A stretch of 64,000 bases of DNA from Lysobacterales bacterium (GTDB taxonomy: Bacteria > Pseudomonadota > Gammaproteobacteria > Xanthomonadales > SZUA-5): contig JABAQR010000001.1 of assembly GCA_019187485.1 (NCBI GenBank), positions 40,359 through 104,358 on the forward strand. Reading direction: 5' to 3'. Positions within the stretch are counted from its first letter, which is position 1. The number at the start of each line of letters is the position of its first letter. The translations under genes and the position numbers were made by a program. Below the pieces are notes generated by a model. It worked only from the letters and a program-made list of their open reading frames with translations, was not told where the DNA came from and ran no database searches. Below are positions 2,450 to 60,929 of the stretch, piece after piece.

Positions 2450-3304
2450 TCACCCGACGGCGGCCACCAACGCATCCACGAAACGCGCCGCACTGCCCGG
2501 GGCATGGTCGAAGAACAGTGAGGGTTCGGCGAGTTCGAGTTCGAGCAATACCGGACGGCCGTCGCCATCGCGCAGGAGATCGACGCGCGCGTACAGCGGT
2601 GGCTGTGCGAAAGGCAGCGCAGCCAGCACCTGGCGCGCGAGTGCGAGTTCGTCGGTGCCGGGTTCGCGTGCGACGATCTGCTCGGGGGCGAACAGTTTTT
2701 CGGTGGCGCCGGCGTTCGGCGGCAGCAGTGGGCCCTTGCGGATCGCGTGCGAATAGCGCCCGCCGAAGTGCATCAGCGCGGTCTCGCCCACCGCGTCCAC
2801 GCGTGCGAGATAGGGCTGCACGAGCACGTCGCGACCGGCACCGAGCAGCGCCTGAGCGTGCGCCCGCGCACCCGCTGGGTCGTTGCGGAATCGGCGGGCG
2901 TCGCGCGAACCGGCGCCGACCGCCGGTTTGACCACCAGTTCCGGCAGCGCCGGCAGTGCGACCGTTGCACCCGGGCGCAGCAGGGTGGTCGGTACCACTG
3001 GCACGCCGCGCCCGACCAGTTCCAGCAAATAGCCCTTGTGCAGGTTCCAGCGCAGCACCGAGGGCGGATTCAGCACATCCGTATGGGTTTCGACGCGCGC
3101 CAGCCAGGCGCAGAACTCCTCGAAACGGTCCACATAGTCCCAGGGCGAACGCAGCAGCGCGCAGCGGAAGCGCGACCAGTCCGCCTCCGGATCGTCCCAG
3201 TCGACGATTTCGTGGGGGATGGCGCGCCTGCGCAGTTCCGCACACAGCGGTGGCAGGTCTTCGTCCAGAGCGCGCGCGGCGCGGGCGGTGATCAAGGCGA
3301 TCAA
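2450..3304 (-). CDS. ATP-grasp domain protein (RimK/glutathione-synthetase-like fold), substrate unknown
   Basis: The track ORF is 2450..3370. The body (LHKGYLLELVGRGVPVVPT..VVKPAVGAGSRD..VLVQPYL..ETALMHFGG..YARVDLLRDGDGRPVLLELELAEPSL) has an ATP-grasp layout. I chose the TTG at 3304 (M-IALITARAA) as the start, so the start is uncertain. Confidence 0.7.
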   Translation of the reverse strand: MIALITARAARALDEDLPPLCAELRRRAIPHEIVDWDDPEADWSRFRCALLRSPWDYVDRFEEFCAWLARVETHTDVLNPPSVLRWNLHKGYLLELVGRGVPVVPTTLLRPGATVALPALPELVVKPAVGAGSRDARRFRNDPAGARAHAQALLGAGRDVLVQPYLARVDAVGETALMHFGGRYSHAIRKGPLLPPNAGATEKLFAPEQIVAREPGTDELALARQVLAALPFAQPPLYARVDLLRDGDGRPVLLELELAEPSLFFDHAPGSAARFVDALVAAVG

Positions 3305-5596: not shown

Positions 5597-5652
5597 GTAT
5601 CAGTCGTGAGTAGAAGTTCGGTAGGGCGCCATCAGCAACTAGCAATTGGCAA

Positions 5653-6033
5653 CTAGCGATTAGGGCGAGTTTCCTGGAGGGCTGAATTGCGGTCCAGCGA
5701 CTTTCGAAGCGATTGCAGCATCCGGCCCAGCTCGCTTGCCGAGCGCAGTACTGGATCAATGGGTTCGCGCGTCAGCTCCAGTCTCCCAGCGAGCAGGCAT
5801 TGTGTCTCCAGTTCGGCGAGAGAGCCCATTGCGATGGCGAGGAAGCGCGCGAACTCCCGGGTGAACAACCGAGATCGGCCTTCCGCGATGCACGACGGGA
5901 CGGAAACGGCGGAACGGCGTATCTGTTGCGCCAATCCATAGCGCTCTGTGTCTGGCAAGGACTGCGCAATTCGATAGGCCGCCGTCGCCAGATTCATGGC
6001 GCGTTTCCAAACGTCGAGGTCGCGATAGCTCAT
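5653..6033 (-). CDS. Four-helix-bundle protein, 23S rRNA intervening-sequence protein family (PF05635/TIGR02436; Avd-like fold)
   Basis: Start chosen at MSYRDLDVWKRAMNLA. Family hallmarks are present: YGLAQQIRRSAVSVPSCIAEG and FLAIAMGSLAELETQ. The last codons and the TAG stop (CCT AAT CGC TAG) are supplied by the left hairpin arm. Confidence 0.8.
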   Translation of the reverse strand: MSYRDLDVWKRAMNLATAAYRIAQSLPDTERYGLAQQIRRSAVSVPSCIAEGRSRLFTREFARFLAIAMGSLAELETQCLLAGRLELTREPIDPVLRSASELGRMLQSLRKSLDRNSALQETRPNR

Positions 6034-6150
6034 TGGTACGCGATGGATGATTAGGTTGCGTCGATCAGGGTGCCCCGACAAATTACTTGGCGAACCTCGC
6101 AGGCATTGAATACTCCCGTTGCCACAAACTCTCCTCAGCGCACCCTAATC

Positions 6151-6234
6151 GCTAGTCGCTAGTCGCTAGTTGCTAGTCGCTAGTCGCTAGTCGCTAGTCG
6201 CTAGTTGCTAGTTGCTAGTTGCTAGTTGCTATCT
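6151..6234. repeat. Tandem heptamer array: GCTAGTC/GCTAGTT x11 plus one degenerate unit (GCTATCT)
   Basis: Counted directly, with units starting at 6151, 6158, ... 6221, 6228. The array ends 7 nt before the stop codon (6242-6244) of the permease gene. CTAG is palindromic and the period is 7, so TAG appears in all three frames on both strands. Confidence 0.95.
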
Positions 6235-6241
6235 GCTGCTC

Positions 6242-7481: not shown

Positions 7482-7628
7482 AGCGGGGCAAGGGGCAGGG
7501 GTCGGGCATCAGGGCAGGGACGGACGTCGAGGTGGCTCGGGAGGGATGCAACCGCGCCATCTCCAGCCCGCGACAGCATTCGTCCGAGCCGCAGGGCAGG
7601 TCCCCTGCCCCTTGACCCTTGCCCCGCT
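7482..7628. repeat. Hairpin element 'B': AGCGGGG(CAAGGGG)n arms with a ~100-nt loop
   Basis: Left arm 7482-7501 is AGCGGGGCAAGGGGCAGGGG. The reverse complement of right arm 7602-7628 is AGCGGGGCAAGG-GTCAAGG-GGCAGGGG. The two are identical except for one extra heptad. Confidence 0.9.
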
Positions 7629-8963: not shown

Positions 8964-8993
8964 GGGGAGTCCTTGGAGTTTCGGGGACGTTGA

Positions 8994-9124
8994 AGCGGGT
9001 CAAGGGGCAGGGGGCAAGGGGGGCGGCACTCGGGCGCTTGCGAGCGGCTCGGCATCGACCGGACTGCGTCGAGGCTGGGGCATGCGGAGTTCTCGGTCCC
9101 CCGCCCCTTGCCCCTTGCCCCGCT
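8994..9124. repeat. Hairpin element 'C': the same AGCGGGK(CAAGGGG)n family as B
   Basis: Left arm 8994-9026 is AGCGGGT CAAGGGG CAGGGGG CAAGGGG GGCGG. The reverse complement of right arm 9098-9124 is AGCGGGG CAAGGGG CAAGGGG CGGGGG. The right arm ends 2 nt before the ATPase stop codon at 9127-9129. Confidence 0.9.
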
Positions 9125-9126
9125 TT

Positions 9127-9885: not shown

Positions 9886-10000
9886 GGAGTGAGTAGTCGC
9901 GCGGCTGCGCCGCGCTCAGTAGTGAGTGGTGAGTAGCAAAAGCCCGCAATCTGGACTCTCGCCGCTTCTGCCACTCACTACTCACCACTCACTACTCACC
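9886..10000. repeat. Hairpin element 'D': alternating AGTGAGT/GGTGAGT heptads
   Basis: Left 9918-9936 (AGTAGTGAGTGGTGAGTAG) pairs perfectly, 19 of 19 bp, with right 9978-9996. The right arm 9971-10000 is (CCACTCA CTACTCA)x2 and ends 3 nt before the MFP stop at 10004-10006. An extra left copy sits at 9886-9897 and a nested GC hairpin at 9899-9915. Confidence 0.9.
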
Positions 10001-10003
10001 GCT

Positions 10004-39749: not shown

Positions 39750-40706
39750 GTGCAGGCTCCGGCATTGATCGTCGTGACCCCGGTGTTCGAGGACGCGCAG
39801 GCGGCCGCGCGCCTGTGCGCGGACCTCGCCGGCGTTTGTGTGCCGCCGCCGTACATCGTGGCGGTCGACGACGGCTCGGTGCGGCAACCGCTGTCGCCAC
39901 GCATGATCGCCGGCGCCGGCCTCGCCGGGCGTGTGCTGCGGCTGAAGCGCAACGTCGGCCATCAGCGCGCGATCGCGATCGGGCTGGACCACGTCGCCCG
40001 CCACTGGCCGCAGGCGCCACGCGTGGTGGTGATGGACTGCGATGGCGAGGACCGGCCGGCCACCGTACCGGAGCTGCTCGCCGAGCTGGAGGAAGCGCAG
40101 GTCGACGTGGTGGTTGCGCGCCGGCGCGGCCGCGTCGAGAGCCTGCACTTCCGGCTGTTCTACTGGTTGTACAAGGGCCTGTTCCGACTGCTGACCGGAC
40201 GCCAGCTCGCCTTCGGCAACTTCATGGCGCTGAAACCGGCGGCGCTCGCGCGCCTGACCGCGATGGGCGAACTCGCCACCCACGTGGCCGGCAGCGTGCT
40301 GATCTCGCGGCTGCGCTGGCGTGCGCGGCCGCTCGACCGCGGGTCGCGCTACGCCGGCAACAGCCACATGAACTTCGTGGGTCTGGTGCTGCATGGTTTC
40401 CGCGGCCTGATGATCTTCGCCGAGGATGTGCTGGTTCGAGTCGGCACCGCCTGCGCGCTGGTGGCGGCATTGGCGGTGGCCGGCGGCAGCACCGCGGTGG
40501 TGCTGAAGTCGATCGGTTACGCGACGCCGGGCTGGTTCTCGGTGGCGCTCGGCATCCTGTTTCTGGTGTTCCTGCAAACGGGCGCGATCACGCTGATGAC
40601 GCTGATGCTGACCGGTGTGGTGCGCGCCGGCAGCGTGCAGCCGCAGGATCACGCGGCGCTGGTCGATGCGGTGCTCGCGACCGGCGACGATGCGACCGCT
40701 GCCTGA
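39750..40706 (+). CDS. Family-2 glycosyltransferase with two C-terminal TM helices (GtrB/ArnC-like polyprenyl-phosphate glycosyltransferase)
   Basis: GTG start. Motifs VVTPVFED, VAVDDGS and DCDGEDRP (DxD) are followed by C-terminal TM segments. Confidence 0.8.
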   Translation: MQAPALIVVTPVFEDAQAAARLCADLAGVCVPPPYIVAVDDGSVRQPLSPRMIAGAGLAGRVLRLKRNVGHQRAIAIGLDHVARHWPQAPRVVVMDCDGEDRPATVPELLAELEEAQVDVVVARRRGRVESLHFRLFYWLYKGLFRLLTGRQLAFGNFMALKPAALARLTAMGELATHVAGSVLISRLRWRARPLDRGSRYAGNSHMNFVGLVLHGFRGLMIFAEDVLVRVGTACALVAALAVAGGSTAVVLKSIGYATPGWFSVALGILFLVFLQTGAITLMTLMLTGVVRAGSVQPQDHAALVDAVLATGDDATAA

Positions 40707-42625: not shown

Positions 42626-42683
42626 GGGATAGACCAGCTCTCCAAACACCCGATGACTCGCAGATCTTCGGACAGCAGATTGG

Positions 42684-42757
42684 TCCGCAAAGGACGCAAA
42701 GGACGCAAAGGAATCAAGAGCTTCTGCTTTCTTCGCGTCCTTTGCGTTCTTTGCGGA
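42684..42757. repeat. Hairpin element 'E': 30-nt arms built from three CGCAAAGGA 9-mers, with a 14-nt loop
   Basis: Left arm 42684-42713 is TCCGCAAAGGACGCAAAGGACGCAAAGGAA. The reverse complement of right arm 42728-42757 is TCCGCAAAGAACGCAAAGGACGCGAAGAAA, matching at 27 of 30 positions. It lies between convergent gene ends. Confidence 0.9.
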
Positions 42758-42847
42758 CAAGAAGCTCCTGTCGGTAGATGATGCGCGTGTCACGTAGTCC
42801 GCGTTGCGGACAACGTGACCTACGAAAACAATGACTTGTCGGATGTT

Positions 42848-55039: not shown

Positions 55040-56092
55040 TCAGAGGGTGTGCGGTCGCGGCACCTGCGGTGCCTGCATCGGATGCGCTCCCGGTGCGGCC
55101 GGCGGCGCGGGCGGTTCAGGCGGTTCAGGCGGTTCAGGCGGTGCCGGCGGCAGCCTGAAGGCGTGCTTCTCGGGCACGCGCACGGTTACTCGTTGCGCGG
55201 CGCGTTCGCGCTGCAACAGCAGTTCGACGCGCTCGCCGGAATCCTGGTTGGCGAGCTCGCGCATCGCCGCGCGCGGGTTCTCGACCGCCTTGCCGGCGAC
55301 CTCGAGGATCACATCGCCGGGCTCGATGCCCTGGTAGCGCTCCGGATCGACTTCGAGCACGAGCGCACCCCTGGCGACGCCGAAATAGCGCGCGAGGCCG
55401 GGATTCAGCGAGACCAGGCGCAAGCCGCCCATGCCGATCATCGACAGCATGTCGAGACGGTTGCCGACGCCCTCGCCGACACGGCGCTCGATGATCGCCT
55501 CGATGCGCTCGCCCATGTCTTCGAGTGCGCTCCAGTCGCCGACGAAGTCCGCATCGTCGAAGACGAAGGCCTTCGCTTCCGGTCCGCCGAAGAAGGCGAC
55601 GCTGCCCTGGCGCTCCGCGGTCAGTTGCGCGGTCTGCTCGCGACCGTCGCGGCGATAGACGATCGCGACCTGGTCGCCGGCCTTGAGGTCCTTCAGGGCC
55701 TCGCGCAGCGCCTGCAGCGGGCGCTCGCCGGCGAGACGCGCGCCGCGCACGGCGACGATGGTGTCGCCGGCGCGCAGGCCGGCCTTGTCGGCCGGGCCGT
55801 CGGGGGTGACGCCACCGACCCCGACGCCATCGCTGCCGCCGTCGGCAAGGATCACGCCGATCACCGCGCGATCCGGGTTGCCGAGGTAACGGAACATCTG
55901 CACGCGCGCTGAATCGTCGCCGATCTGGGCAGAGAGTTCGGCGACGCGCCGGCCGACCTCGGCCAACTGGCGCTTGGCCTGCGCGAGGTCGCGCCGCAAC
56001 TGCTCGCCGTCGGCATCGGCGTTCTGCGCCGCGACACCGCCGGCGCAGGCCAGCGCCAGCGCGACGCACAGGCTCTTGAGGGTGTGGGACAT
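55040..56092 (-). CDS. Periplasmic protein with a coiled coil, two PDZ domains and a Pro-rich tail; no protease domain recognised
   Basis: Signal peptide MSHTLKSLCVALALACAGGVAA. PDZ-like segments are GVTPDGPADKAGLRAGDTIVAV and VDPERYQGIEPGDVILEVAGKAV. The tail reads PPAPPEPPEPPEPPAPP. Confidence 0.8.
   Translation of the reverse strand: MSHTLKSLCVALALACAGGVAAQNADADGEQLRRDLAQAKRQLAEVGRRVAELSAQIGDDSARVQMFRYLGNPDRAVIGVILADGGSDGVGVGGVTPDGPADKAGLRAGDTIVAVRGARLAGERPLQALREALKDLKAGDQVAIVYRRDGREQTAQLTAERQGSVAFFGGPEAKAFVFDDADFVGDWSALEDMGERIEAIIERRVGEGVGNRLDMLSMIGMGGLRLVSLNPGLARYFGVARGALVLEVDPERYQGIEPGDVILEVAGKAVENPRAAMRELANQDSGERVELLLQRERAAQRVTVRVPEKHAFRLPPAPPEPPEPPEPPAPPAAPGAHPMQAPQVPRPHTL
55111..55137. 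repeat. Coding 9-bp tandem repeat GCGGTTCAG x3
   Basis: Counted directly. It encodes the (PEP)3 part of the Pro-rich tail of the PDZ protein on the minus strand. Confidence 0.9.
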
Positions 56093-56183
56093 CGTTTGCC
56101 GCTCCTGGATTCGGGGGTGTGCCTGGGTTGCCGGCGAGCCGGCTCGATATCGACGTCGATCCATCGACGCCTCCGCTGCTGTG

Positions 56184-56699
56184 TCAGTCCAGGCGGGCCT
56201 GCAGCAGCAGCGGACCGGTGTCCGTTTGCGAGGCGGTGCGCAGTTCTTCCAGCAGGCGCACGCGCTCCCGCCACAAGGCTTCAGTCTGGCCGTCGGCCGC
56301 GAGACCGACGTCGATCAGCGCGAGATCGCCCTCGATCGCGCGCTCCCATTCGTACTGCGCCTCGGCGAGTTCGACGCCGTTCGCGCGCAGCGCGCGGATC
56401 TGCGCCTCCAGCGCCTGCGAGCGCCGCATCAGGGCCGCCAGTTGTGGCGCGCTCGCGACCGCCTGCGGTGTGGGCCGCGCCGGTGGCGGCAGTGGCGCGC
56501 GCTGCAACTGCGGCAGCACCAGCACCGCGACGAGGCCGGCGGCGAGCGCCAGCCACCCCGGCGACGCCCGTCGCGATGCACGGGGCGGCTGCGACCGGCG
56601 CAGGCGCGCGCGCAACTCGCTCCAGCCGGCCGCCGGTGGCGATTCCAGCGGCAGGGCGGCGAGGCGCTCGCTCAGCAGGGCATCGTCGCGGGATTCCAT
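56184..56699 (-). CDS. Putative anti-sigma factor / membrane protein
   Basis: It has a single TM helix (WLALAAGLVAVLVL) and a coiled-coil C-terminus. It lies directly downstream of the ECF sigma gene and overlaps it by 28 nt. Confidence 0.6.
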   Translation of the reverse strand: MESRDDALLSERLAALPLESPPAAGWSELRARLRRSQPPRASRRASPGWLALAAGLVAVLVLPQLQRAPLPPPARPTPQAVASAPQLAALMRRSQALEAQIRALRANGVELAEAQYEWERAIEGDLALIDVGLAADGQTEALWRERVRLLEELRTASQTDTGPLLLQARLD

Positions 56700-57424: not shown

Positions 57425-58213
57425 ATGCGCATCATCACCCTCAACCTCAATGGTCTGCGTGCGGCGGCGCGCAAGGGCGTGCTGCCCTGGCTGGCGGCCC
57501 AGGACGCGGACGCCATCGCGTTGCAGGAAACGCGCTTGCAGGAGCCCGAGCGGGCGGCCGAGGATTTCGGTATTCCCGGCTACACCGGCTATTTCCTCGA
57601 CGCCCAGGCCAAGGGTTACAGCGGCGTCGCGCTGTATCTGCCGCAGCGGCCACAGCACTTCGTCACCGGCATCGGACTGACTGAGTTCGATGCCGAGGGA
57701 CGCTGGCTGCAAGCCGATTTCGGCGAGTTGTCGATCATCTCGCTGTACCTGCCGTCGGGCTCTTCGGGCGAGCACCGCCAGGCCGCCAAGTTCCGTGCGA
57801 TGGACGCATTGCGCGTGCGCCTGGACGCCCTCAGAAGCGACGGTCGGCGCTACATCGTGTGCGGCGACTGGAACATTGCGCACCGCGCCATCGATCTGAA
57901 GAACTGGCGCGGCAACCAGAAGAACTCGGGCTTCCTTCCGGAAGAACGCGCCTGGATGGAGGATCTGCTGGTGCGCGACCGCTGGGTGGACACCCATCGC
58001 CAGCTCAGACCGGATGCCGCCGAGTACACCTGGTGGAGCAACCGTGGGCAGGCCTGGGCGAAGGACGTCGGCTGGCGTATCGACTACCAGATCGCCTCGC
58101 CGAATCTTGCCGGTGCTGCACGCACCGTACGCGTCCACCGCGCCGAGCGGTTTTCCGACCACGCACCGCTGATCGTCGACTACGAACTCCCACGCCTGCG
58201 GCCCCCACGCTGA
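57425..58213 (+). CDS. xth: Exodeoxyribonuclease III (AP endonuclease family 1)
   Basis: MRIITLNLNGLRAA..DADAIALQETR..CGDWNIAH..FSDHAPLIVDY. The track ORF 57341..58213 was trimmed. Confidence 0.9.
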   Translation: MRIITLNLNGLRAAARKGVLPWLAAQDADAIALQETRLQEPERAAEDFGIPGYTGYFLDAQAKGYSGVALYLPQRPQHFVTGIGLTEFDAEGRWLQADFGELSIISLYLPSGSSGEHRQAAKFRAMDALRVRLDALRSDGRRYIVCGDWNIAHRAIDLKNWRGNQKNSGFLPEERAWMEDLLVRDRWVDTHRQLRPDAAEYTWWSNRGQAWAKDVGWRIDYQIASPNLAGAARTVRVHRAERFSDHAPLIVDYELPRLRPPR

Positions 58214-58280
58214 AACCCTTGCGTCCATTCAGGCCTTCGGCCACGATGGCGCCGCTGGATCCGACCGACGAGGGCAAGCG

Positions 58281-58748
58281 ATGTGGCAATGGCTCAAGCG
58301 CCTGTTCAGCCCAGGTGCCGCCCCCGCGGAACCCGCACCCCAGGTCTGGAACTTCCGCATCAAGGGCGGCCGCGCGGAGATCGGTGCGGTCAACGATGCG
58401 CTGGAGCGCGCGGCGATGGCCGGCGAGGTGCCCGAAGCAGCGATGCGCGCGATGCAGGTGGCGCTCGACGAGCTGCTGACCAACGCGATCACGCACGGTT
58501 CGGTCAGCCTCAACGATCCGATGCAGGTGGACCTGATCATCCACAAGAGCGCACTGCGCGCGATGATCAGCCACGCCGGCCCCGCCTTCGACCCCACCGA
58601 AGTCGCCGCACCCGACCTCGAGGGTAGCCTGCAGGACCGCCAGATCGGTGGTCTCGGCATTCACCTGGTGCGCTCGATGATGGATGAGTTCAGCTACGAG
58701 CACGCCGACGGGCGCAATGTGCTGAAGCTGGGGAAACGCTTCAAGTAG
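58281..58748 (+). CDS. RsbW/SpoIIAB-like anti-sigma regulatory Ser kinase (HATPase_c_2)
   Basis: N-box-like (ALDELLTNAITHG) and G-box-like (GGLGIHLVRSMMDEFSYE). I found no STAS or PP2C partner in the window. Confidence 0.7.
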   Translation: MWQWLKRLFSPGAAPAEPAPQVWNFRIKGGRAEIGAVNDALERAAMAGEVPEAAMRAMQVALDELLTNAITHGSVSLNDPMQVDLIIHKSALRAMISHAGPAFDPTEVAAPDLEGSLQDRQIGGLGIHLVRSMMDEFSYEHADGRNVLKLGKRFK

Positions 58749-58848
58749 CCTGCTTCCTGGTCGACGCGGGGCAAGCACGACTCCAGCCACTCGCAACCTT
58801 TCCTTGCCGCACCGGGAACACGCCCCGTAAACTCCCGCGCCCTGCGGC

Positions 58849-58923
<75 letters not shown>

Positions 58924-58937
58924 TCCTTCGAGAAGCT

Positions 58938-59023
58938 GGAAAAAGGGAAAGGGAAAAAGGAAAAAGGGACTTGCGTCCCGGTGGCGCGCCTTCCCCTTTT
59001 TCCTTTTTCCCTTTCCTTTTTCC
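58938..59023. repeat. Hairpin element 'F': 32-nt all-purine arm and all-pyrimidine arm
   Basis: Left arm 58938-58969 is GGAAAAAGGGAAAGGGAAAAAGGAAAAAGGGA. The reverse complement of right arm 58992-59023 is GGAAAAAGGAAAGGGAAAAAGGAAAAAGGGGA, differing only by a shifted G. The 22-nt loop contains a GGGAC-TTGC-GTCCC mini-hairpin. The element starts 14 nt after the tRNA-Lys and ends 13 nt before the trpS ATG. Confidence 0.92.
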
Positions 59024-59036
59024 TGACCCGCTCCCG

Positions 59037-60368
<1,332 letters not shown>

Positions 60369-60390
60369 TGGGCTGGGGGCGGGCGCGCTG

Positions 60391-60669
60391 ATGGCCGCGT
60401 TCGTCGGCGTGCTCCTGCTCGCGCCGCTGCTCGCGGTGCTGCTCGGCATCTACCACTACGCTGCCACCCGCGCCGCGCGCACGCCGGCGCAACGCCGCCA
60501 CGACCGGTGGGTGGCGGCCATCGCCAGCGTCCTCACCGTGCTCGCCGCGGTGCTGGCCTTCCACACCGCGCCGAGCGCGCGCGGCCCGATCTGGCCACAG
60601 GTCTATGCCGTGCTGGGCGGATTCTTCGCGATGCTGCTGGCGCTCGGCCTGGGCTGGCGGCGGCGCTGA
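60391..60669 (+). CDS. Small membrane protein (3 predicted TM helices), unknown function
   Basis: A 92-aa track ORF with strong third-position GC and hydrophobic segments. Confidence 0.55.
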   Translation: MAAFVGVLLLAPLLAVLLGIYHYAATRAARTPAQRRHDRWVAAIASVLTVLAAVLAFHTAPSARGPIWPQVYAVLGGFFAMLLALGLGWRRR

Positions 60670-60758
60670 GCGCGCTGGAAAGCCTTAGTCCCGCTCCGGT
60701 GCTCCGAGCGGAAACAGCGGCCGGAAGGGGCGCGCCTCGTCCACGCAGTGCGCGAAGG

Positions 60759-60929
60759 ATGGACGCTGGAGCAGCCGCGATCGGTAGCCGCGCTGCCTGC
60801 GGCGCGCGACTGGTTGGCTGGCTGGCGCATTACGCCATCGCCTTCGTCGCGCTGCTGCCGGTGGCCTTCGTCGCGGTGACGCTGGTCGCGCCCTGGGTCA
60901 GGAAAGTGGTGGCGCGGGTGACCGCATGA
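60759..60929 (+). CDS. Possible small membrane protein (56 aa)
   Basis: It lies at the tail of track ORF 60507..60929. The hydrophobic part (LVGWLAHYAIAFVALLPVAFVAVTLVAPW) has high third-position GC. The start is uncertain. Confidence 0.3.
   Translation: MDAGAAAIGSRAACGARLVGWLAHYAIAFVALLPVAFVAVTLVAPWVRKVVARVTA

Follow-up and report, generated by a model that had tools for sequence, protein, structure and literature searches.

Hairpin F, an inverted repeat at positions 58938-59023 of the window (the whole 64,000-nucleotide stretch analysed here, positions 40,359 to 104,358 of the forward strand of contig JABAQR010000001.1 in assembly GCA_019187485.1 of a Lysobacterales bacterium), is located between a tRNA-Lys gene and trpS and is very probably a member, without an open reading frame (ORF), of a class of intergenic inverted repeats with arms made up of tandem heptamers. 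This class is abundant in this genome, and there is good support for regarding it as typical of Xanthomonadales/Lysobacterales, with the G- or purine-rich arm placed first and the repeat unit specific to each element. It is equally well supported that one architecture is common to hairpin F, to the repeats bracketing S23p / four-helix-bundle genes and to the intervening sequence (IVS) in the 23S rRNA of Coxiella burnetii. The complete explanation, in which membership of this class is combined with a tRNA-Lys/trpS co-transcript and cleavage of the stem by ribonuclease III (RNase III), is put forward as a working proposal with slightly less than an even chance of being right.

The 5' arm of hairpin F (58938..58969, + strand; GGAAAAAGGGAAAGGGAAAAAGGAAAAAGGGA) is 100% purine (G = 13, C = 0), and the 3' arm (58991..59023, + strand) is 100% pyrimidine. 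Tandem Repeats Finder assigns a period of 7 to both arms, the former containing 4.3 copies of the unit GGAAAAA and the latter 4.4 copies of CCTTTTT, and the G runs in the unit array are 2-3 long with A3-5 between them. Perfect mirror repeats of 23 nt (58938-58960) and 18 nt (58994-59011) are present in the two arms. The 32-nt arms are 81% complementary in an ungapped alignment, and after a 1-nt shift 28 nt (58941-58968 / 58994-59021) are 96% complementary, where the only mismatch is a G opposite T, equivalent to a G.U pair in the + strand RNA. The main stem of the minimum-free-energy fold comprises 31 pairs (18 A-U and 13 G-C) with one bulge; the fold energy is -57.4 kcal/mol (z = -5.1), or -55.9 kcal/mol (z = -5.5) for the 113-nt spacer, and none of 200 dinucleotide shuffles folds as well. 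An earlier description made from the letters alone (hereafter the sequence-only reading) had proposed a homopurine/homopyrimidine stem between tRNA-Lys and trpS that would be extremely stable as RNA, and it proves correct in the make-up of the arms, in the coordinates, in the stability (about -56 kcal/mol) and in the spacing, as the tRNA ends at 58923, 14 nt before the element, and the trpS ATG begins at 59037, 13 nt after it.

The loop of hairpin F (58970..58990, + strand; CTTGCGTCCCGGTGGCGCGCC) is 21 nt long and G+C-rich, and is not conserved in the orthologous element of a relative (L004, described below). Positions 58983-58990 hold an 8-bp palindrome (GGCGCGCC), adjoining which GGGAC-TTGC-GTCCC could form a small alternative hairpin, followed by a T-run on the minus strand. 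Hairpin F is identical (100%, over 3-5 kb) in five independent assemblies, namely one NCBI metagenome-assembled genome (MAG) and four Sequence Read Archive (SRA) runs, which are all those carrying an identical TrpS, and it is therefore not an assembly artefact. Being identical, these five assemblies carry no information on strain-level variation in unit number. Within the 64-kb window the arm pattern, allowing up to 3 mismatches, matches only its own arm and the partner arm.

Six inverted repeats in the window (A-F) have arms composed of tandem 7-9-nt units, which differ between the elements; the arm design that the sequence-only reading had attributed to elements A-E is thus found in five further inverted repeats. 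A detector designed for this analysis, which looks for tandem tracts of period 6-9 whose inverted partner lies no more than 700 nt away, reported 5 elements in the window, where 20 Markov-1 resamples gave 0.15 on average; its counts are lower bounds, as it misses weakly periodic elements (element B of the window and the hairpin of L006). Elements A-D occupy four consecutive spacers of one minus-strand operon, which encodes HlyD, an ATP-binding cassette (ABC) ATPase, two MacB-type permeases and a sigma-54 response regulator, and they start 1-21 nt past the upstream stop codon. Element A (5634..6238, - strand) has CTAGTCG/CTAGTTG arms (GCAACTA/GCGACTA in the sense direction, with 13 units upstream and about 4 downstream) and encloses a TIGR02436 gene at a distance of 53 kb from hairpin F, while elements B, C and D are ORF-less. 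Element B (7482..7628), with GGGGCAA-type arms, is located between the two permease genes; element C (8993..9125), with arms of the same type, has its end 1 nt past the ABC ATPase stop codon; and element D (9912..10002), with GTGAGTA arms, follows the HlyD stop codon by 1 nt. Elements B and C are paralogues whose outer arms are nearly the same (AGCGGG.CAAGGGGCAGGGG ... CCCCTTGCCCCGCT). The orthologous operon spacer of L086 and L089 contains hairpins with drifted units of about 8 nt (GGGCACGA / GCCCTCAT). Element E (42683..42758) has three 9-nt units (GACGCAAAG) per arm and an 8-nt loop, and lies in a region (41.1-42.9 kb) where a gene call based on the G+C content of third codon positions (GC3) gave no confident gene. 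In all six elements the left arm contains more G than C, and as an inverted repeat reads alike on both strands, the G-rich arm comes first in either direction of transcription.

The ORF of element A (5653-6033, - strand; 126 aa) encodes a TIGR02436 four-helix-bundle protein (E = 1e-31), whose homologues carry the Pfam domain PF05635 ('23S_rRNA_IVP') together with weak bAvd matches, and whose closest solved relative is the pentameric XCC0516 from Xanthomonas campestris (PDB 2gsc; E = 1e-42 with an alignment profile). The gene is inserted between the gene for MacB-type permease 2 and the sigma-54 response-regulator gene, and orthologues sharing 87, 76 and 65% identity are found at the equivalent site in three other MAGs. 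The arms of element A and of these orthologues share GCAACTR/YAGTTGC units in very different numbers (13:4, 3:3 and 4:12, upstream:downstream), and the inner stem shows a compensatory change, being TTAGGG/CCCTAA in the window and L092 and TTGGGG/CCCCAA in L086 and L089. The permease genes of L092/L093 (GCA_016713135.1, GCA_009612995.1) share 98% identity with the window, falling to 84% at element A and through the regulator; the drop coincides exactly with the element (window 6246; L092/L093 ~2216-2500) and resembles the breakpoint of a recombination event. Compared with L093, the four-helix-bundle gene of L092 has a leader extended by an insertion of ~130 nt.

The association of such genes with heptamer arms extends well beyond this operon. 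A survey of 82 loci, for which the metagenomic L096-L175 and L086, L089, L092 and L095 are named, was based on 80 metagenomic loci (L096-L175; 36-69% G+C) retrieved with an alignment of the four-helix-bundle family. The gene is bracketed by an inverted repeat (Smith-Waterman score of at least 30) in 62 of the 82 loci, against 1/82 in a control with flanks paired across different loci and 4/82 in direct orientation. In these 62 gene-bearing elements the arm period is 7 in 53 cases and 8 in a further 7, almost every locus has a unit of its own, and the 5' arm is G-rich in 57 (p = 6e-14). Upstream neighbours are co-directional in 45 of 51 cases and downstream neighbours in 25 of 46 (Fisher p = 2.5e-4, with a crude ORF call), as would be expected if the cassettes had no promoter and relied on read-through of the upstream gene. 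Locus L095 is from Lysobacter yangpyeongensis, where glyA and nrdR flank the four-helix-bundle gene. Five further ORF-less heptamer hairpins occur in the four-helix-bundle loci. When the loops of the ORF-less hairpins were searched with tblastn for a remnant of the four-helix-bundle gene, only element A matched. A general link between four-helix-bundle/IVS-protein genes and heptamer inverted repeats was looked for in the literature, with most subscription journals outside the search, and only the Coxiella case was found.

The closest published counterparts of hairpin F are the GGGAATC heptamer arrays of Xanthomonas, of which Rehm et al. (2015) reported ~185 per genome in X. campestris / X. axonopodis, including 70-75 convergent inverted pairs (PMC4692102). 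These arrays typically contain about four copies, are enriched between co-directional ORFs and within 50 bp of the neighbouring gene, and are transcribed; their position is conserved between species, while their length is variable (PMC4692102). Hairpin F belongs to the same bacterial order and shares with the GGGAATC pairs the period of 7, the inverted arms with the G-rich array 5' on each strand and the intergenic position between co-directional genes, 14 nt after tRNA-Lys (+) and 13 nt before trpS (+). However, its unit is GGAAAAA and provides no four G3 tracts, so that it is a variant and not a strict member of the published group. A G-quadruplex was proposed by the authors, who found no function (PMC4692102); given the five unit types in the window alone, a capacity for quadruplex formation cannot be what unites the elements. 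In Xanthomonas, transcript starts and stops are more frequent at long heptamer arrays than at short ones, whichever strand is transcribed (PMC4692102), and such strand-independent transcript ends fit a feature of double-stranded RNA better than one of the G strand. Unlike the present analysis, Rehm et al. dealt with a single unit (GGGAATC) and made no link to four-helix-bundle genes or RNase III. Intergenic tandem heptamers are also known as the short tandemly repeated repetitive (STRR) or heptanucleotide repeats of cyanobacteria (GGGGA[C/T]T in Nostoc; TAACTGA in Beggiatoaceae and cyanobacteria), which unlike hairpin F are mostly single direct arrays, few inverted pairs being reported in Nostoc. 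GGGATT-type units bracket the four-helix-bundle genes in metagenomic loci L117 and L126.

The IVS in helix 45 of the Coxiella burnetii 23S rRNA carries an S23p ORF and tandem GACAGAT heptamers, which differ in number from strain to strain, and is closed by a terminal stem of 28 bp that a single mismatch and a single bulge interrupt (Warrier et al. 2016; PMC4990558). It is excised in vitro by both Coxiella and E. coli RNase III, with ends at mid-stem, and Salmonella IVSs are cited as cut by RNase III (PMC4990558). Hairpin F resembles this IVS in its long, near-perfect stem (31 bp with one bulge as against 28 bp) and in its tandem heptamers, while the gene family carried by the Coxiella IVS is that of sister element A. 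ORF-less IVSs exist in Salmonella and other bacteria. Unlike the IVS, hairpin F is located in a tRNA-mRNA spacer and not in a 23S rRNA helix, and its 21-nt loop holds no PF05635/TIGR02436 ORF.

As a small intergenic palindrome, hairpin F is also comparable with repetitive extragenic palindromic (REP) sequences and bacterial interspersed mosaic elements (BIMEs), and with MITEs (miniature inverted-repeat transposable elements), which within operons can affect mRNA ends. A genome with REPs or MITEs holds numerous near-identical copies, which are marked by a conserved head or terminal repeat (GTAG/CGTC for REPs; PMC3733652). Classification of hairpin F as a REP/BIME or MITE was rejected, since its arm is unique in the 64-kb window, each element has its own unit, and comparison of its borders with the empty site of L001 reveals no target-site duplication.

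The spacer between tRNA-Lys and trpS was examined in relatives, one genome per species being scanned with TrpS. The tRNA-Lys(UUU) gene is kept directly upstream of trpS in seven Lysobacterales/Rhodanobacteraceae MAGs (TrpS identity 69-85%), in which the spacers differ radically, indicating that hairpin F is dispensable and turns over. The spacers of L001 (12 nt from the tRNA CCA to the trpS ATG; ACTCGATAGCCC) and L005 (46 nt) contain no hairpin, those of L003 (77 nt) and L007 (122 nt) are without significant structure (z about 0), and that of L002 (89 nt) is decayed, the purine arm being lost and the pyrimidine arm kept (z = -0.8). The 124-nt spacer of L004 contains an orthologous full GGAAAAA hairpin with an unrelated loop (-62.5 kcal/mol, z = -6.7), whose run lengths differ from those of hairpin F in both arms, so that complementarity has been maintained while the sequence drifted. 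An unrelated GGTTCTC/GAGAACC heptamer hairpin is present in the 127-nt spacer of L006 (hairpin 2874-3000; -57.8 kcal/mol, z = -6.1), and a GGGGCTA hairpin (2822-2965; -91 kcal/mol) precedes trpS in L008, where there is no tRNA. Three unrelated heptamer hairpins (GGAAAAA, GGTTCTC and GGGGCTA) are thus found just upstream of trpS in different lineages. Among 80 trpS loci (534 kb, ~60 of them from Burkholderiales) no convincing hairpin was found beyond those of L004 and L008, with two weak period-6 matches.

In a neighbour-joining tree of TrpS, the empty-site L001 is nested among hairpin bearers, which implies both gain and loss. The view that hairpin F was gained in recent ancestry and lost or decayed in close relatives, and is thus a tolerated insert and not a conserved regulator, is well supported. 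An essential role does not survive the comparison, as relatives with the same gene order have short hairpin-free spacers (12 nt in L001, 46 nt in L005) or a decayed hairpin (L002); relatives with short spacers were among what the sequence-only reading had named as counter-evidence.

The genes on either side of hairpin F are the tRNA-Lys(UUU) gene with an encoded CCA (58849..58923, + strand; ARAGORN; Rfam RF00005, 73 bits), separated from the hairpin by a 14-nt single-stranded trailer (58924..58937, + strand), and trpS (59037..60368, + strand), which encodes tryptophan--tRNA ligase (NCBIfam NF008923, E = 2.8e-197). A putative sigma-70 promoter of tRNA-Lys (TTGCCG, 18 nt, TAAACT; 58804..58833, + strand), read directly from the sequence, scores below the threshold of the promoter scan, and a TA[AGC]ACT -10 element upstream of tRNA-Lys is kept in L001-L005. 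The scan of 58000-60800 detected no promoter-like site in or near the tRNA-Lys/trpS spacer, and the putative tRNA-Lys promoter would be the only plausible one for trpS too. With only 12 nt between CCA and ATG in L001, it can be strongly inferred that transcription of trpS in this clade relies on read-through from the promoter of the tRNA.

No Shine-Dalgarno-like sequence is present in the 13 nt (59024..59036, + strand; TGACCCGCTCCCG) between the hairpin and the trpS ATG, as the sequence-only reading had noted, and trpS is without a Shine-Dalgarno sequence in the window and in L001-L006, i.e. wherever it is linked to tRNA-Lys, hairpin or none. More distant Lysobacterales relatives have GAGAG at -8 to -12 before trpS. 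The combination of a trpS without a Shine-Dalgarno sequence and the 12-nt gap of L001 suggests a short-leader mRNA made by tRNA processing.

The proposed course of events is as follows. The tRNA-Lys and trpS genes would be transcribed as one RNA from the promoter upstream of the tRNA, and the 31-bp near-perfect double-stranded stem would fold once the pyrimidine arm has been transcribed and would then be cut by RNase III. The cut would split the tRNA precursor, to be trimmed afterwards, from the trpS mRNA, which would be left with a short U/C-rich leader without a Shine-Dalgarno sequence. An uncut stem would stand at the edge of the ribosome-binding region, so that trpS could be translated normally only after cleavage or melting. 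The distance from the end of the stem to the trpS AUG is 13 nt in the window, ~9 nt in L004 and ~5 nt in L006, and stems lying 5-9 nt from the AUG of an essential gene in the latter two would have to be removed or opened, which favours processing over a static structure.

The processing step has a functional parallel in Escherichia coli, where a cut between tRNA metY and rimP frees the tRNA from the co-transcript and determines both the stability and the 5' end of the mRNA that follows, and where tufB lies in a tRNA operon. RNase III sites are known both between metY and rimP (in the metY-nusA-infB operon) and at tufB (Gordon et al. 2017; PMC5371410). Hairpin F is similarly placed between a tRNA gene and a downstream protein gene, although the analogy would be one of function only, as the E. 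coli metY and tufB hairpins are conserved, are not built of tandem repeats and are unrelated in sequence. Of the roles listed in the sequence-only reading, that of a processing signal is accordingly the one favoured here, with the cleavage itself taken by analogy from these systems; an RNase III step at hairpin F is a tentative proposal that we consider somewhat less probable than its opposite. It may also be speculated that placing the G-rich arm first avoids the exposure of C-rich, Rho-loading RNA before the partner arm is made.

Several points weigh against this explanation. Hairpin F is absent in L001, L003, L005 and L007 and decayed in L002 (z = -0.8), and any function that it has is therefore weak or replaceable. 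Cleavage by RNase III, co-transcription and an effect on trpS are all inferred for this organism. The two strands of hairpin F fold about equally well (-55.9 kcal/mol for the + strand and -61.3 kcal/mol for the minus strand), as any inverted repeat must, and complementarity could be kept by template switching at the DNA level in quasi-palindromes, not by selection on RNA. As a gauge of selection at the RNA level, sense-strand G.U among the non-Watson-Crick positions in the 62 stems of the survey exceeds A.C only by 86 to 65 (p = 0.10). Finally, hairpin F contains no four-helix-bundle gene or remnant, and its kinship with the IVSs is one of architecture and co-occurrence, not of sequence homology.

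Part of this evidence would suit a functionless by-product of mutation, in which slippage expands the heptamers, template switching copies the arms, and the result persists only for being nearly harmless in a spacer. In many bacteria the long simple sequence repeats are most often heptamers, which has been put down to polymerase slippage (PMC4692102, PMC4679880); the unit numbers of element A differ greatly between arms and orthologues, hairpin F is present, absent or decayed among close relatives, and the G.U bias is not significant. This account, however, leaves unexplained the polarity with the G-rich arm first (57/62), the position right after co-directional genes (45/51), the tie to one gene family (62/82 vs 1/82) and the occurrence of three unrelated heptamer hairpins upstream of trpS in different lineages, and we regard it as rather unlikely to be the whole story. 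It is plausibly compatible with the RNase III explanation as an account of the origin of the element, though not of its effect.

A second alternative is a 3'-end structure of the REP/BIME or leaky-terminator type, in which the stem acts as a block to 3'-to-5' exonucleases or as a partial stop for RNA polymerase, protecting the upstream RNA and lowering read-through into trpS. Elements of this family start 1-21 nt after a stop codon and hairpin F 14 nt after the tRNA, its 3' arm is rich in U, repeats of this kind are often the site of transcript ends in Xanthomonas (PMC4692102), and a highly transcribed tRNA before an aminoacyl-tRNA synthetase gene would gain from attenuation. The terminator scan of 58000-60800 does not bear this out, as the + strand is without a terminator-like site and the sole match is on the minus strand, at the loop of hairpin F, with 1.3 expected by chance. 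No unpaired U-tract follows the stem, the next sequence being TGACCCGC / UGACCCGC, and the stem of 31 bp is two to three times longer than the stems of 5-14 bp known from intrinsic terminators and REPs. If trpS is without another promoter, termination must be weak in any case. An intrinsic (Rho-independent) terminator was thus rejected for lack of a + strand site and of a U-tract directly after the stem; the tRNA terminator suggested by the sequence-only reading, if strong, also conflicts with the 12-nt gap of L001, which requires read-through. A milder 3'-end role is judged unlikely.

Control of trpS translation, another role suggested by the sequence-only reading, would require the stem to gate binding of the 30S subunit, and the freed pyrimidine arm could then act as an enhancer bound by ribosomal protein S1. 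The short distances from stem end to AUG given above and the absence of a Shine-Dalgarno sequence in every tRNA-linked relative are in its favour. That absence is independent of the hairpin, however, since L001, L003 and L005 have neither, and each gene that follows a sister element has an ordinary Shine-Dalgarno sequence of its own beyond the stem. Neither an alternative pairing nor an element for sensing a ligand is present; over the tRNA-Lys/trpS region Rfam reports only the tRNA at the gathering threshold, and with permissive E-values only sub-threshold look-alikes of eukaryotic pre-miRNA hairpins. A T-box, riboswitch or other aminoacyl-tRNA-synthetase leader was accordingly rejected, as no curated Rfam model matched. 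Dedicated control of trpS translation is improbable, the Shine-Dalgarno sequence being missing with or without the hairpin in the tRNA-Lys-linked relatives.

A DNA-level non-B structure (H-DNA or a cruciform acting as a barrier to replication or transcription, or as a recombination hotspot) is the least credible alternative and very improbable, for although both arms are 100% purine or pyrimidine and carry perfect mirror repeats of the length expected of an H-DNA tract (at least about 15-20 bp), and a putative recombination breakpoint lies at sister element A (98% -> 84%, window vs L092/L093), mirror symmetry is built into any tandem (GnAm) repeat and the homopurine make-up is peculiar to hairpin F, mixed units being found in all five sister elements and in almost every one of the 62 elements that bear a gene. 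The triplex potential noted in the sequence-only reading is thus present in the mirror repeats, while as a purpose it reduces to a quirk of the GGAAAAA unit. The bacterial intrastrand-triplex motif was likewise rejected, as it needs three segments (PMC4666352) and hairpin F has two.

Taken by itself, hairpin F is a dispensable hairpin, and its value lies in what it points to. The intergenic heptamers of Xanthomonas and cyanobacteria have been without an accepted function for decades, and the G-quadruplex idea cannot cover units such as GGAAAAA, GTGAGTA and CTAGTCG; the function and origin of rRNA IVSs and of the S23p family are likewise unsolved. The present analysis ties heptamer repeats, IVSs and S23p genes together by one architecture, in which arms of 7-nt tandem units, with the G-rich arm first, are located downstream of a co-directional gene, and in which the S23p gene family is embedded in about three quarters of the sampled loci across phyla. 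The one fate of this architecture that has been shown experimentally is excision by RNase III, and the tie yields a concrete testable hypothesis for heptamer repeats, IVSs and S23p proteins alike. For annotators, long 'perfect' hairpins in these genomes are to be taken as house style and not as bespoke regulators of the adjacent gene. Hairpin F itself is novel in its homopurine unit, its lack of an ORF and its location in a tRNA-mRNA spacer, while the underlying kind is known yet unexplained.

A bolder generalisation, to which we give a rather low probability, is that heptamer-armed repeats, whether or not they contain a four-helix-bundle (S23p, Avd-like) gene, belong to a single widespread class of promoterless cassettes, which ride on host transcripts and are excised by RNase III. 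The rRNA IVS would then be only the rRNA-resident tip of a family residing in operon spacers, 3' untranslated regions and tRNA-mRNA junctions, with hairpin F as an ORF-less copy. The cargo protein, which is homologous to Avd, an accessory protein of diversity-generating retroelements, might have a role in spreading or maintaining the repeats.

One further repeat in the window is of a different kind. Positions 55101-55150 contain a 9/18-nt tandem repeat (GGCGGTTCA, 4.6 copies) within a minus-strand coding region (55040-56314), which was flagged once by the detector as a weak false positive and probably encodes a repetitive peptide segment.

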